A DNA stretch of 64,000 nucleotides from an uncultured Christensenella sp. GTDB taxonomy: Bacteria > Bacillota > Clostridia > Christensenellales > UBA1242. Numbering within the stretch: the first letter of the stretch is position 1; each line of letters starts with the position of its first letter. The notes under the pieces are model-generated. The model had not been told where the DNA came from. It ran no database searches and saw nothing but the letters and a program-made list of their open reading frames with translations. Shown piece by piece: positions 27,068 to 34,328 of this stretch. The stretch spans positions 21,222 through 85,221 of the forward strand of contig CAJUBT010000005.1 of the NCBI GenBank assembly GCA_910584815.1. Reading direction: 5' to 3'. The position numbers and the translations under genes are program-made.

Positions 27068-27101
27068 CTATTCGCAAAACTTGAGTTTTGCGAATAGTTT
27101 A
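27068..27101. repeat. Left boundary hairpin (att-like); also terminator-shaped on the + strand
   Basis: 13-bp perfect stem CTATTCGCAAAAC / GTTTTGCGAATAG with loop TTGA, then TTTATTTATT. It can be read as 11-6-11 (TATTCGCAAAA CTTGAG TTTTGCGAATA). The 17-mer 27085-27101 is identical to 34312-34328. Confidence 0.6.
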
Positions 27102-27230
27102 TTTATTAAAAAATAAACGAAATCGCATAGTTTTGATAAATTAAATTTATTATCTACTACTACTCTACACCACTATTTTTATTTTGTGAAGAGAAAATGT
27201 CAATATTTTTTAGAAAATTTAAAAAATTTT

Positions 27231-27908
27231 TTATGAATAAATAGCCATTTTTTCTAATTTAAATTTACGACAATAAATTAAACTACTTCTTTTAGTTGTT
27301 TCTTTTATAGCGTGATTAGTAAGTTTTGCCACATACTTACCTAATGCTTTTGCGTTTTTATTGCATAATTCACCATCTAAATTACCATAACTCCAGGTTG
27401 TATAATCGAAAAAATCTTTTGCTACTACTGCGTGATAATGTTCCCTTCCATTTTCTTCGCCAAAATCTATATTAGCAACATAATCTTCACAATTTAAACT
27501 ATCTAAGTATCTTGTTACATATCTACGGCGAGTTAATTCACTTGTAGAAGCAAAAATTTTATCAGTAAATGTAAATGTTAAAAACTGGCACTTATTAAAT
27601 GCTAGCATTATTTCTATGCGTTTTTTAAGGCGTTTAACCCTATGATATGTAGCATTATTTATTTTTTCTGCTTCTTTCCACATTTCTTTATTAGTATGAT
27701 TTTGAAAATTATGTATTTTAACTGCACTAGAATAACTCAAATCAGTTAAATCAGAACCAATGTTATTATATTGATTATATTTAAAAATTGCCTTAGAAAC
27801 TTTCTTTTGAAGTTTACAAAGTCCACTTTTTAAAACTTTTGCTTTAAATTCGTAATCTATCACTAAAATGTCCCCTTTTTTAGTTGTTTCTATGCCTAGG
27901 ACGTCCAC
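27231..27908 (-). CDS. HUH-superfamily rolling-circle replication initiator (Rep)
   Basis: Ordered motifs FLTFTF (motif 1), EHYHAVV (HUH) and GKYVAKLTNHAIK (YxxK). The track start GTG at 27908 lies inside a hairpin. An alternative GTG at 27863 has a better RBS (AAAGGGGA, 8-nt spacing). Confidence 0.75.
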   Translation of the reverse strand: MDVLGIETTKKGDILVIDYEFKAKVLKSGLCKLQKKVSKAIFKYNQYNNIGSDLTDLSYSSAVKIHNFQNHTNKEMWKEAEKINNATYHRVKRLKKRIEIMLAFNKCQFLTFTFTDKIFASTSELTRRRYVTRYLDSLNCEDYVANIDFGEENGREHYHAVVAKDFFDYTTWSYGNLDGELCNKNAKALGKYVAKLTNHAIKETTKRSSLIYCRKFKLEKMAIYS

Positions 27909-27935
27909 CTTACCAAGTCAATAAGGTGGACGTCC
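27899..27935. other. Perfect 14-bp GC-rich hairpin, a candidate Rep origin or recognition site
   Basis: GGACGTCCACCTTA (27899-27912), loop CCAAGTCAA, TAAGGTGGACGTCC (27922-27935). Each arm contains the self-palindrome GGACGTCC. No U-run on either strand, so it is not a terminator. Confidence 0.55.
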
Positions 27936-28285
27936 TTAGGCAAATATGTTGTAGTAATAAACATATTGCAGTTAATATGTCCCCTACTCGCCTATTAGAT
28001 GCCATTAAAATGGCAGGCTCGCCACCGTTGCGACCTTCCCTAGCCTTGGTCGCTTTTAATTGGTTATTTAAAATATTTTGGACGCTGTCCAAACCTGCAA
28101 GGAACTAGTCCCTTGACCCCTTTCACACTCGACCGTGTAGGCAATCCTTCCCCGAATTATGTCGGGGAAGGAAATTAATATTATATTCTACCCCATCTTG
28201 TCAAAGGGTGAACATAAAGCAACCATCAATGCTGGCTATTCTTGTTTATCATTCCCCTTTATCTTTGACAAGATATAGTTTTTTA
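27899..28285. other. GC-enriched, hairpin-dense non-coding block (phage intergenic region, or a structured RNA/ssDNA element)
   Basis: Visibly much more G+C than the surrounding DNA. Multiple stems: the 27899-27935 hairpin, GCGACC/GGTCGC (28030-28053), TGGAC/GTCCA (28079-28091), CAAGG/CCTTG (28098-28115), CCTTCCCCG/CGGGGAAGG (28146-28171), and long-range ATCTTGTCAAAGGG (28195-28208) with CCCTTT..TTGACAAGAT (28255-28274). The ORFs here are short and overlap on both strands. Confidence 0.5.
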
Positions 28286-28294
28286 CGATATAAT
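28265..28294 (+). promoter_or_regulatory. Near-consensus sigma-A promoter for the DUF2726-like gene
   Basis: -35 TTGACA 28265-28270, 18-bp spacer, -10 TATAAT 28289-28294. RBS AAAAGGGA before the ATG at 28330. Confidence 0.6.
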
Positions 28295-28329
28295 TAGCAT
28301 AAGTAATTATAAAAGGGACAAATTAAGAA

Positions 28330-28998
28330 ATGAAAAATATTGAATATTATCAAAAAAAATTAAAAATTTATTCAATAGCAAGATGGTCATTAATAGGATT
28401 TGGTTTAGCATTATTCTTAATTGAATTTACACTTAGCCTTAATGGCATTGATTTATTTACAGTTTTAGGCTATATAGGAGTTATTATAGGAATAATTGCT
28501 ATAATAATCGGTTTTGCTTTTGGAAGAATAATAATAAAAACATTAGAACATATAGAAAAATTGAAAACAATAACAGAAGCCATAGAAGATAGTAAAGGAA
28601 ACGAAATAGATATAAATAAGTATGAAAGTAAAAAATTAATAACTGATAATGAAAATTTTTTTTATAACATAATAGAAAATAACTTTGGGAATAAATATAA
28701 AGTTCAAACACAAATTTATTTAGGGGCTATTGTAAATAAGAAAAAGAAGTTTCCTAGTGAATACCAAAACGAACTAAATAAAACAATAGACTTTGGCATT
28801 TTTGATAAAGGAACATTATACCCTTTATTATTAATTGAAATAAATGATAAAACCCACTCGGAAACTAAAAGAATTGAAAGAGATAAGAAAGTCAAAAAGA
28901 TTTGTGAGTTAGCAAATTTAAAACTAATTTCATTTCCAGCATACGAAAAAGATGAAAATTATATTATAGAAAAGATAGAAAGAGAACTAAAAATTTAG
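28330..28998 (+). CDS. Membrane-anchored DUF2726-like (PD-(D/E)xK nuclease-fold) protein; the only + strand gene in the prophage
   Basis: 222 aa with two N-terminal TM helices and a charged linker. The C-terminal ENNFFYNII...YKVQTQIYLGAIV...IDFGIFDKGTLYPLLLIEINDKTHSETKRIERDKKVKKICELANLKLISF matches the DUF2726 pattern (vDFvi.d...p.laIElDd.sH...rD...aGi.li) as I remember it. Confidence 0.55.
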   Translation: MKNIEYYQKKLKIYSIARWSLIGFGLALFLIEFTLSLNGIDLFTVLGYIGVIIGIIAIIIGFAFGRIIIKTLEHIEKLKTITEAIEDSKGNEIDINKYESKKLITDNENFFYNIIENNFGNKYKVQTQIYLGAIVNKKKKFPSEYQNELNKTIDFGIFDKGTLYPLLLIEINDKTHSETKRIERDKKVKKICELANLKLISFPAYEKDENYIIEKIERELKI

Positions 28999-33678: not shown

Positions 33679-33818
33679 TATTTTTTAGTCCTTTTATGCA
33701 TTAAAAATTTATTCCAAATCTTCCAAAAGACTTTACTTAGCATATATGAAATGGCTATTACATAAAACCAAGTTTGTATATCATTATTAAAAACTTGATT
33801 AAATAAATCTATAATCAT
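33678..33818 (-). CDS. 46-aa single-TM protein with a basic C-terminus (below the ORF-track cutoff), candidate minor coat protein
   Basis: Hand translation: MIIDLFNQVFNNDIQTWFYVIAISYMLSKVFWKIWNKFLMHKRTKK. The ATG overlaps the upstream stop (ATGA) and its stop overlaps the next ATG (TAATG), so it exactly fills an otherwise unexplained 136-nt gap. Confidence 0.5.
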   Translation of the reverse strand: MIIDLFNQVFNNDIQTWFYVIAISYMLSKVFWKIWNKFLMHKRTKK

Positions 33819-34084
33819 TTTATAGGTTCAACCGATACAAACTTTTTAAAATCACTCATAGCAGAAATTTCAAAACATACCTTACAAGGTTTTAATAATG
33901 CTAAACCCTTAATATCTAAATTTTCATCACTAAAATATGTTTTAAAATTTACAACTTGCCTATTGTTATCAACTTCCAAGAAGTTATACATATAACTTTT
34001 TACACCTGTTTTATTTCCAGTTGTTTTATCCTTTTTCTCGTATTCTGTTTTTCCACCGAATAATAATTCACAATAAACTTTCAT
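33815..34084 (-). CDS. Small beta-rich protein, candidate ssDNA-binding protein (pV-like position)
   Basis: 89 aa. First gene of the coupled block, with RBS AAGGAGAAAA. Size and position match inovirus gV. No sequence motif verified. Confidence 0.4.
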   Translation of the reverse strand: MKVYCELLFGGKTEYEKKDKTTGNKTGVKSYMYNFLEVDNNRQVVNFKTYFSDENLDIKGLALLKPCKVCFEISAMSDFKKFVSVEPIK

Positions 34085-34112
34085 TTTAAATTTTCTCCTT
34101 AATTAATTTAAT

Positions 34113-34151
34113 AAAAAAAATAGATTGATAATAATTTAATTTATCAATCTA
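34113..34151 (-). terminator. AT-rich hairpin plus T8 just upstream of the first structural-module gene
   Basis: 11-bp perfect inverted repeat TAGATTGATAA (34121-34131) / TTATCAATCTA (34141-34151). On the minus strand it is followed by TTTTTTTT (34120-34113), about 15 nt before the RBS of the 89-aa gene. Confidence 0.4.
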
Positions 34152-34184
34152 TGCAATAATGAAACTAATAATATAATTTAAACT

Positions 34185-34212
34185 AGTTCGCAAAACTATC
34201 TTTTTGCTAAGT
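34185..34212. repeat. Degenerate third copy of the boundary palindrome (11-6-11 geometry)
   Basis: AGTTCGCAAAA CTATCT TTTTGCTAAGT. 8 of 9 core positions pair. About 110 bp from the right boundary copy. Confidence 0.45.
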
Positions 34213-34292
34213 TTTTGGAATATTATATTTTTATCTTAATTAAAAACTGGGACAAATTAAGAAAAGTATTTATAATATTACCTACACCAAAA

Positions 34293-34328
34293 AATTCGCA
34301 AAAGTAACTCCGTTTTGCGAATAGTTTA
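34293..34328. repeat. Right boundary hairpin (att-like); also terminator-shaped for the minus-strand DUF45 gene
   Basis: 10-bp stem ATTCGCAAAA / TTTTGCGAAT with a 9-nt loop. On the minus strand it is followed by TTTTTGG. It shares ATTCGCAAAA and the 17-mer GTTTTGCGAATAGTTTA with the left copy. Confidence 0.6.

Follow-up and report, generated by a model that had tools for sequence, protein, structure and literature searches.

To our knowledge, the filamentous phages of Gram-positive bacteria have barely been characterised. Among the closest described systems, Propionibacterium phage B5, Clostridium CAK1 and the "cryptic inoviruses" (Roux et al. 2019, PMC6813254) combine genomes of 6-7.5 kb with an HUH Rep, a pI/Zot-like ATPase and many small membrane proteins, lack a secretin and have monoderm hosts. 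A second group consists of integrative mobile elements exploiting Xer (IMEX), such as CTXphi, VGJphi and TLCphi of Vibrio (Proteobacteria), phages that encode no recombinase, carry a dif-like attP and are inserted by XerCD into the dif site of the replication terminus, with a functional-looking dif retained at one end. The examples of integrase-free lysogeny in a review of Xer recombination are all from Proteobacteria, namely Vibrio, Neisseria and Enterobacter (PMC5357621). Integrase-less phages with single-stranded DNA (ssDNA) also reside at Xer sites as Microviridae prophages, in Bacteroidetes (PMC3091885) and in Enterobacteria. Here we describe an element that shares traits with each group, a 7,227-nt unit bounded by a 17-nt direct repeat within positions 27085-34328 of a 64,000-nt stretch (hereafter the window) of contig CAJUBT010000005.1 from an uncultured Christensenella sp.

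The element is probably an intact-looking, inovirus-like (Tubulavirales) prophage of a monoderm, endospore-forming Firmicute, inserted at dif, most likely through the XerS-like recombinase of its host in the manner of IMEX phages. Inoviruses of monoderms (PMC6813254) and IMEX phages at dif (PMC5357621) being already known, its kind is not new. What appears to be new is the lineage, with an ATPase that current Zot profiles do not see and that is found neither among GenBank phages nor in IMG/VR, together with the spore-forming Firmicute type of host, the use of a single XerS-like recombinase and the dif motif. That the host forms spores, as had been supposed from the letters of the DNA, is supported by a SpoIVB equivalog at 3040-4299.

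Several differences separate the element from the described systems. Unlike the Vibrio IMEX phages, it resides in a monoderm spore-forming Firmicute with a single XerS-like enzyme instead of XerC plus XerD, its dif is TATTCGCAAAA-N6-TTTTGCGAATA, its proteins have no detectable sequence similarity to theirs, and the role of Xer is one that we infer. Unlike B5, CAK1 and the cryptic inoviruses, it has an ATPase unrecognised by Pfam Zot and PHROGs, with N-terminal membrane helices, and its lineage carries an antisense DUF2726 gene; for B5 and CAK1 this comparison consists of negative GenBank-phage searches only. The Microviridae prophages belong to a different virus realm branch and have an icosahedral capsid, whereas the occupant in the window seems to be of the filamentous type.

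A Filamentous Phage-Like Gene Set

The element is delimited by two exact copies of GTTTTGCGAATAGTTTA, at 27085-27101 and 34312-34328, with a spacing of 7,227 nt; its boundaries as a prophage are 27085/27102 and 34311/34328. Each belongs, as one arm, to a TTCGCAAAA...TTTTGCGAA hairpin, and the pattern TTCGCAAAA-N-TTTTGCGAA occurs at two sites in the 64 kb, both at the ends of the element, against a chance expectation of 0. The ends given for the gene block in the original prediction, which was made from the sequence alone (27068 and 34328), coincide with this hairpin-containing repeat, and the position of the block is confirmed by the listing of open reading frames (ORFs) and by re-derived starts. 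The "about 13 genes" then counted on one strand are 13 in all, every ORF intact; twelve lie on the minus strand, and the thirteenth, a DUF2726 gene that went unmentioned, lies on the opposite one. The minus-strand genes overlap at six junctions (by 4, 1, 23, 20, 1 and 8 nt) and are transcribed in the order p89, p46, p70, p84a, ATPase, p84b, p87, p79, p73, p114, p569, Rep. With the ATPase in mid-block and the large, adsorption-like p569 at the end of the run that begins with p89, this order is unlike that of canonical Ff phages, and the gII-gV-...-gI series first read into it does not hold. Searches of the element proteins with Pfam, PHROGs, NCBIfam and PADLOC returned only DUF2726, a weak Rep match and generic P-loop matches.

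The 332-aa P-loop ATPase (32255-33253, minus strand) carries the motifs GGIGSGKST and VLVDEAG and an N-terminal two-helix membrane hairpin. Its family comprises 42 proteins of 37-100% identity among 5.8 billion, none of them named and none with an informative Pfam family, and a profile search of 1.84 billion cluster representatives found only 8 clusters below 1e-10. An AlphaFold2 model built from the family alignment is confident (pLDDT 81), and its top matches in BFVD (E=1.2e-10, 2e-6, 4.4e-6, 1.2e-5 and 3.5e-5) are A0A894JLK1, an unnamed protein of 269 aa (E=1.2e-10), followed by four proteins named Zot of Inoviridae (E 2e-6 to 3.5e-5). By its equal length of 269 aa only, A0A894JLK1 would correspond to the "zonular occludens toxin" of Inovirus sp. 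MT135295.1. The proteins in the weak tail of the profile search (E 1e-7 to 1e-3) are 270-480 aa long, mostly 270-330 aa; Pfam Zot was found in 12 of the 26 remote relatives scanned, and hhalign aligned the ATPase family (A1) with the remote relatives (A2) at 99.7% probability over Walker A, Walker B and the next strand. From the modelled fold and this transitive profile link, we conclude that the ATPase is a divergent member of the Zot/pI superfamily, in line with the Zot/pI identity initially considered for it.

The ATPase, p569 and the element as a whole have no matches among GenBank phages (tblastn/blastn), the ATPase family was not found in IMG/VR using its two most conserved peptide patterns, and a scan of GTDB genomes gave two short contigs of metagenome-assembled genomes (MAGs) only, one from a Christensenella sp. 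and one from a Clostridia bacterium. With an unnamed ATPase family of 42 members that was found in neither GenBank phages nor IMG/VR, the early description of the element as a divergent, undescribed lineage is plausible.

Exact-protein look-up of ATPase family members retrieved two MEGAHIT contigs, L024 and L015, that contain related elements. L024 (7,613 nt) and L015 (6,310 nt) each have a terminal overlap of 141 nt, and as these overlaps equal the k of the assembler, both are circular, with circles of 7,472 and 6,169 nt, respectively. L024 shares the 13-gene layout of the window element, down to the antisense DUF2726 gene, the structured region described below and the short Rep; the two are collinear over the full length of the window element, with 72-78% of nucleotides identical. 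A circular form, originally expected of the prophage, is thus found in two relatives; for the window element itself it is not demonstrated.

The Rep (210 aa, GTG start; 27231-27863, minus strand) carries the HUH rolling-circle motifs FLTFTF, HYHAVV and YVAKL. It had been taken as a 225-aa ORF (27231-27908), which comparison with L024 and gene calls on other contigs shorten to a start at the GTG at 27863. Its direct Pfam match, PF23343 (REP_ORF2-G2P), is weak and below cut-off (E=0.0023), and PF23343 is present in most of the best 120 of its 1,972 homologs. In GenBank phages, tblastn matches it to a part of Inovirus sp. MT135295.1 that carries no annotation (35% identity) and to Microviridae initiators; the nearest match is the inovirus genome. 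The Rep of the circular contig L024 is 77% identical. Taken together, these matches agree with the HUH family membership first suggested for the protein.

Upstream of rep lies a structured non-coding region of 466 nt (27864-28329, minus strand), a feature absent from the original prediction. Its GC content reaches 34% in a genome of 25% GC, and its ssDNA fold has an energy of -77.3 kcal/mol vs -40.2 for shuffled sequences (z=-9.7), with an 18-bp-stem hairpin at ~27897-27942. The hairpins are retained in L024, one of them with a compensatory C/G to G/C change, and no Rfam family matches the region. It is a candidate for the counterpart of the inovirus intergenic region, with its origins and packaging signal. 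Two other identities were tried and rejected: a tmRNA, tRNA or ribozyme serving as integration target, for which Rfam and ARAGORN were empty and the stretch proved phage-internal and conserved in L024, and a disrupted Rep N-terminus, for which blastx against the longer Reps of relatives was negative.

Among the best 120 phage-Rep homologs (~45-50% identity), the longest contig is mostly of ~0.9-1.5 kb. Contigs L189 (1239 nt) and L190 (1232 nt) consist of a rep gene and a GC-rich upstream hairpin region and nothing else; the terminal repeat of L190 is only 15 nt and L189 has none, so that the circularity of such contigs is not demonstrable. Judged by content, these Rep-only contigs of ~1.2 kb could be mini-replicons, satellites or assembly fragments.

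The candidate major coat protein, p79 (31353-31592, minus strand), is proposed from sequence and hydropathy: it has a signal-like N-terminus ending in ALVSA, acidic residues, a transmembrane (TM) helix and a basic tail (GRVRKSM). Inovirus major coat proteins are ~50 aa long when mature, acidic at the N-terminus and basic at the C-terminus with a TM helix in between, and p79 resembles them in size and in the arrangement of its charges. Conservation among the small proteins of the element is highest for p79 (69% identity to its L015 counterpart), which has no family match in Pfam or PHROGs and no homology to a known pVIII. The candidate pIII-like adsorption protein, p569 (28995-30704, minus strand), has a signal peptide and a C-terminal membrane anchor; residues 5-23, 445-463 and 496-514 are hydrophobic and precede a basic tail. 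It is collinear with proteins of 566 aa in L015 and 578 aa in L024 and has no family match in Pfam or PHROGs. Two further minus-strand products, p73 (31041-31262, two predicted TM segments) and p114 (30697-31041, three), are candidate minor coat or assembly proteins and are conserved in L015 at 55-58% (tblastx). Across Pfam, PHROGs and GenBank phages, no protein of the element has significant similarity to a characterised coat protein.

The candidate ssDNA-binding protein and gV analogue, p89 (33815-34084, minus strand), was modelled by AlphaFold2 as an all-beta, five-strand, OB-like barrel (pLDDT 80). A Foldseek search of the PDB placed OB-fold proteins at the top, a putative nucleic-acid-binding lipoprotein and then PriB, SSB and Rim1, at a TM-score of ~0.5, and the structure of Ff gV was not among the top 50. 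The early proposal of a gV-type OB fold finds weak support: the model is a five-strand barrel whose best matches, none of them significant, are OB-fold ssDNA binders.

A gene set of this composition might also belong to a replicon that is not filamentous, either an integrative rolling-circle plasmid with membrane proteins or a plasmavirus- or pleolipovirus-like vesicle virus, given that a Rep, a P-loop NTPase and small membrane proteins are found together in pleomorphic viruses too, alongside a signal-peptide/C-anchored spike. Consistent with this, a protein of Acholeplasma phage L2 stands at rank 7 of the ATPase fold matches (E=1.2e-4), characterised coat proteins yield no significant similarity, the gene order departs from that of Ff and the p89 match is non-significant. 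However, five of the six best viral fold matches of the ATPase are inovirus Zot proteins (the Zot identity of the top one being deduced from length alone) and its remote relatives are Pfam Zot; p79 resembles the inovirus major coat protein in length and charge distribution, the gene after the replication module encodes a small OB-like protein, in the place that gV has, and the nearest GenBank match of the Rep is in an inovirus genome. We regard a non-filamentous replicon as quite improbable. The inovirus-like identity first put forward for the element is supported by the Zot-like fold and profile link of the ATPase, the PF23343 Rep, the OB-like p89 and the circular relatives.

Insertion at a Chromosomal dif Site

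No integrase or transposase domain was found in the 10 element proteins scanned (>=73 aa; p46, p70 and p84a were left out), and no secretin was found inside the element by Pfam, PHROG and NCBIfam scans. Their absence had been noted at the outset, with the lack of an integrase left unexplained. Because the element sits in the dif of its host beside a XerS-like recombinase gene, this lack can now probably be explained.

Reconstruction of the host site yields TATTCGCAAAA-CTTGAG-TTTTGCGAATA, a palindrome with perfectly inverted arms around a centre of 6 nt, arranged 11-6-11 as Xer sites are; the rebuilt empty dif reads ...ACAACTATTCGCAAAACTTGAGTTTTGCGAATAGTTTAAATAGTAAAAAAACTCC... The motif TATTCGCAAAA-N6-TTTTGCGAATA was found in at least 120 public metagenome contigs, one site each, from gut and other samples, Clostridia-like and of 24-54% GC. 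Its arms are fixed and frequently reach 13-14 nt, with free variation in the six bases of the centre. GC skew was positive to the left and negative to the right of the site in 25 of the 33 loci that have at least 2.5 kb on each side; it kept its sign in the other 8, and the reverse switch occurred in none. In the window, the skew is positive to ~27 kb, positive again at 34-40 kb and negative thereafter to the end, and gene orientation switches at ~40 kb; the window spans the replication terminus.

The host recombinase, a tyrosine recombinase of 348 aa (22969-24015, minus strand), lies outside the element, ~3 kb to the left of the site. Its best NCBIfam match is NF003462 XerS, over the full length (E=1.2e-58, 198.6 bits). 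Full-length orthologs (44-66% identity) occur in 39 of the 120 palindrome loci listed, in most of them 60-350 nt from the palindrome, and in 22 of the 57 loci with at least 1.5 kb on each side the gene lies within 1.5 kb of the site, usually 50-290 nt off and transcribed away from it. Since a skew switch and an adjoining recombinase gene are the criteria by which difSL and difH were defined (PMC2731167, PMC5357621), the palindrome is regarded as the dif of a putative single-recombinase system built on a XerS-like enzyme. The flanking hairpin had also been considered as a terminator or as a Rep origin, and was rejected as such in favour of dif after the metagenome scan.

The site and its enzyme recall XerS/difSL of streptococci and lactococci and XerH/difH of epsilon-proteobacteria in the ~350-aa recombinase, its gene often adjoining the site, and the position at a skew switch; moreover, the AAAA-spacer-TTTT inner palindrome resembles that of difH, ATTGAAAA-CTATAA-TTTTCAAAT (PMC2731167). 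They differ from both systems in the arm sequence TTCGCAAAA, in the Clostridia-like gut hosts and in a XerS score below the equivalog cut-off, and from difSL, a 31-bp site with an 11-nt centre (PMC5357621), in the variable 6-nt centre and perfect inverted arms of 11-14 nt. No description of the site was found in the literature on Xer, dif or IMEX in Clostridia/Firmicutes, the coverage of which was not exhaustive.

The two junctions are unequal. At the left one (27066-27098), which overlaps the left 17-nt core copy, the host dif is kept with its normal 6-nt centre (CTATTCGCAAAA-CTTGAG-TTTTGCGAATAG); the right one (34293-34328), which holds the right core copy at 34312-34328, is a hybrid of one host dif arm, a 9-nt centre from the phage and a phage arm. 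In circular L024, the stretch that separates rep from p89 matches the left as well as the right end of the window element; therefore, attP can be read as TAAACTATTCGCAAAA-N9-TTTTGCGAAT, as in L024, where it matches the phage side of the hybrid junction. The attP of L024 and the rebuilt attP of the window element have 14-17 nt of the dif arm in common, which puts the presumed crossover inside the shared 17-nt arm or at its border. A single strand exchange at the border of arm and centre, starting from a double-stranded replicative form or from folded ssDNA, would give this pair of junctions as its expected product.

The phage has another dif-like site (site 2, 34187-34218), which is degenerate, lies ~110 nt from the first (site 1) and has one good arm, equal to the left arm of site 1 in reverse complement. 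Both L024 and L015 retain site 2. When the rebuilt intergenic regions are folded as ssDNA, the two sites pair in the minimum-energy structure of the window element and of L015, and not in that of L024. This inverted half-site with its ssDNA pairing recalls the attP1/attP2 hairpin of CTXphi (PMC5357621), a likeness that is only a hint.

Across species, the locus is also found empty. The order xerS-like gene, dif, YgjP-like gene, PadR-like gene occurs in seven contigs (L049, L071, L085, L088, L091, L125 and L129), with dif ~60-340 nt from YgjP, and the order LexA, serS, dif, YgjP, PadR in two others (L053 and L124), at a distance of ~625 nt. In the window, the 7.2-kb element lies exactly between dif and YgjP, its right-hand site 119 nt from YgjP.

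These junctions do not by themselves separate Xer-mediated insertion from integration by the HUH Rep of the element, in which case the TTCGCAAAA/TTTTGCGAA hairpins would be nick or origin sites of Rep and the host palindrome a pseudo-origin caught by Rep strand transfer, as with adeno-associated virus Rep or IS91-type elements. HUH enzymes do use hairpin-borne sites, the junction repeats do lie in hairpins, and the element has no recombinase. Yet L015 keeps the motif although its Rep has undetectable similarity to that of the window element, and the host site exists independently of phages, as a conserved chromosomal palindrome with a variable 6-nt centre, at skew switches and beside an Xer-type gene, in many phage-free species; the same site, in two copies, also flanks a microvirus whose Rep is different again. 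For these reasons integration by Rep is highly improbable.

That microvirus is found in the IMG/VR contig L186, where a Microviridae prophage (3572-8548) with a 352-aa initiator and a major capsid gene apparently split into two ORFs is located between two copies of the dif palindrome. To the left of the first copy are LexA, a xerS-like gene and a CD-NTase gene as in the window, and the contig ends just past the second copy. L186 appears to hold a microvirus IMEX in a Firmicute-like host. As it occupies the same site in the same left neighbourhood, dif serves as a shared landing pad for integrase-less ssDNA phages. A wider reading, to which we would give a little less than an even chance, is that an undescribed single-recombinase dimer-resolution system of gut Clostridia-like Firmicutes, made up of the XerS-like enzyme and TATTCGCAAAA-N6-TTTTGCGAATA, is exploited by monoderm ssDNA phages for integrase-free lysogeny, in which case the window element would be the first filamentous phage of the IMEX type in an endospore-former and would represent a lineage missing from the searched catalogues.

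Other Routes of Integration among Relatives

The lineages without an integrase (the window element, L024 and L015) carry the TTTTGCGAA motif in their intergenic regions; the motif is absent from the elements of rve-carrying relatives and has no copy in the whole of L016, the contig of the most distant ATPase relative. In the rve-carrying lineage, an ATPase 74% identical to that of the window occurs with DUF2726, a 326-aa PF23343 Rep and an rve/DDE integrase gene at the end of the element. Copies of 8.35 kb, 100% identical, lie in three unrelated chromosomal contexts (L019, L021 and L022, positions ~8890-17236; also L020), which suggests a recent, transposition-like spread of an rve-carrying inovirus-type element. 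The host of this lineage encodes SpoIIIA. L016 (6656 nt; ATPase identity 37%) carries an HTH repressor-like gene and a tyrosine integrase, and its end beside the integrase looks like the 3' end of a tRNA. As dif, an rve integrase (L019 group) and a tyrosine integrase (L016) all occur, the clade would have at least three integration strategies.

Separately, the AT-rich (28% GC), inovirus-like contig L191 of 7.8 kb, with a window-type Rep (53% identity), has three TTCGCAAAA/TTTTGCGAA motifs in a single intergenic region (5896-6148), which suggests that further lineages may use the same dif.

Three contigs, L004 (at 10935), L006 (2755) and L010 (1391), end 1-2 nt past TTTTGCGAA, at positions corresponding to ~34186 and ~27095 of the window. 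They come from three samples (two NCBI MAGs and one Logan assembly), and the ends fall twice at site 2 and once at dif. Since the repeats are far too short to break an assembly with k>=21, these breaks may mean that the samples are truly mixed, for instance with excised, empty or rearranged forms.

Proposed Life Cycle and Its Implications

If the element is an IMEX-type inovirus, its life cycle can be outlined from its gene content. Rep (27231-27863) would nick and rejoin DNA for rolling-circle replication, the origin probably lying in the hairpin-rich 27864-28329, which would also supply the packaging signal. The ssDNA would be coated by p89, and the Zot/pI-like ATPase, together with the small membrane proteins, would extrude it across the single membrane, where a secretin would be unneeded; on its way out, the DNA would receive its major coat from p79, and p569 would be added as the tip or adsorption protein. 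A phage without a recombinase and with a dif-like attP would have recombined with the chromosomal dif in the terminus region, the enzyme most likely being the single XerS-like tyrosine recombinase of the host (22969-24015), so that one junction keeps an intact dif and the other becomes a hybrid.

Several observations weigh against this account. No virion, ssDNA or excised form of the window element has been observed. The ATPase has no direct match to Pfam Zot or PHROGs, and in the PDB it resembles generic RecA-type proteins, the Neisseria Zot N-domain (2r2a) coming only at rank 11 (E=8.6e-4). Only one of the five models of p89 is confident, the remaining four having a pLDDT of 57-68, and the fold matches of the protein do not reach significance (E>=0.13). 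The attP spacer of 9 nt, compared with 6 nt in dif, is unusual for a simple double-strand Xer reaction. The recombinase, at 198.6 bits, falls below the 267-bit equivalog cut-off and is thus XerS-like, not XerS, and the Xer inventory, XerC/XerD included, is that of the 64-kb window. In addition, exact-protein look-ups with both flanking genes found the prophage in every contig that spans the locus and no empty site in the same species; the empty site anticipated in the original prediction is therefore clear across species and missing within this one.

The uniform occupancy of the locus in same-species contigs, with no empty counterpart, would also be expected if the prophage were a fixed, immobile remnant that is intact in appearance only, and integration through a folded-ssDNA attP would be irreversible, as for CTXphi. 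On the other hand, all 13 of its ORFs are intact, it is collinear over its full length with circular L024, the species is known from only a handful of samples, and the MAG contig breaks at dif-like motifs (L004, L006 and L010) would fit a heterogeneous population. A remnant seems unlikely.

The locus suggests that integrase-free lysogeny extends to spore-forming gut Firmicutes, by way of a single XerS-like recombinase. The locus also yields a concrete candidate dif motif for a broad range of gut bacteria; prediction of dif was earlier unsuccessful for some very AT-rich clostridia (PMC3025954), and there is a precedent for finding a dimer-resolution system through a mobile element, in Legionellales (PMC9765430). 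The motif could be used as a marker of the replication terminus in MAGs and could flag a hotspot of small ssDNA prophages (inovirus and microvirus) that integrase-based prophage finders miss. Likewise, the ATPase alignment could serve as a marker for a lineage that current Zot/pI profiles overlook.

Remaining Genes and Neighbours

Between p89 and the ATPase gene, the minus strand encodes three small, hydrophobic proteins that are collinear with L015, namely p46 (33678-33818), p70 (33466-33678) and p84a (33234-33488). Beyond the ATPase gene follow p84b (31985-32239, minus strand), which has no TM segment, and p87 (31720-31983, minus strand), which has one TM segment and a Lys-rich tail. The plus-strand gene (28330-28998) encodes a membrane-anchored protein of 222 aa with a Pfam DUF2726 match (E=3e-15) and no match in PADLOC. 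It has the same antisense position in L024 and in L019-L023 and is absent from L015; on this distribution it appears to be a conserved accessory gene of the lineage.

Outside the element, a 298-aa nucleotidyltransferase is encoded between the xerS-like gene and dif (25717-26613). It matches Pfam CD_NTase_C, the PADLOC oligonucleotide cyclase (E=4.8e-18) and, below cut-off, the NCBIfam anti-phage nucleotidyltransferase (E=4.9e-13), and a homolog 45% identical to it holds the same place beside dif in L186. It looks like a defence-type gene beside a phage landing site, with no obvious effector partner nearby. On the other side, next to YgjP, is an unusually long PadR-family protein of 590 aa (35359-37131), with a PadR domain at the N-terminus, TM helices at the C-terminus and, between them, a long part of low complexity that is rich in Asn, Ser and Glu. 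Conservation of the YgjP-PadR pair beside dif extends to many species.

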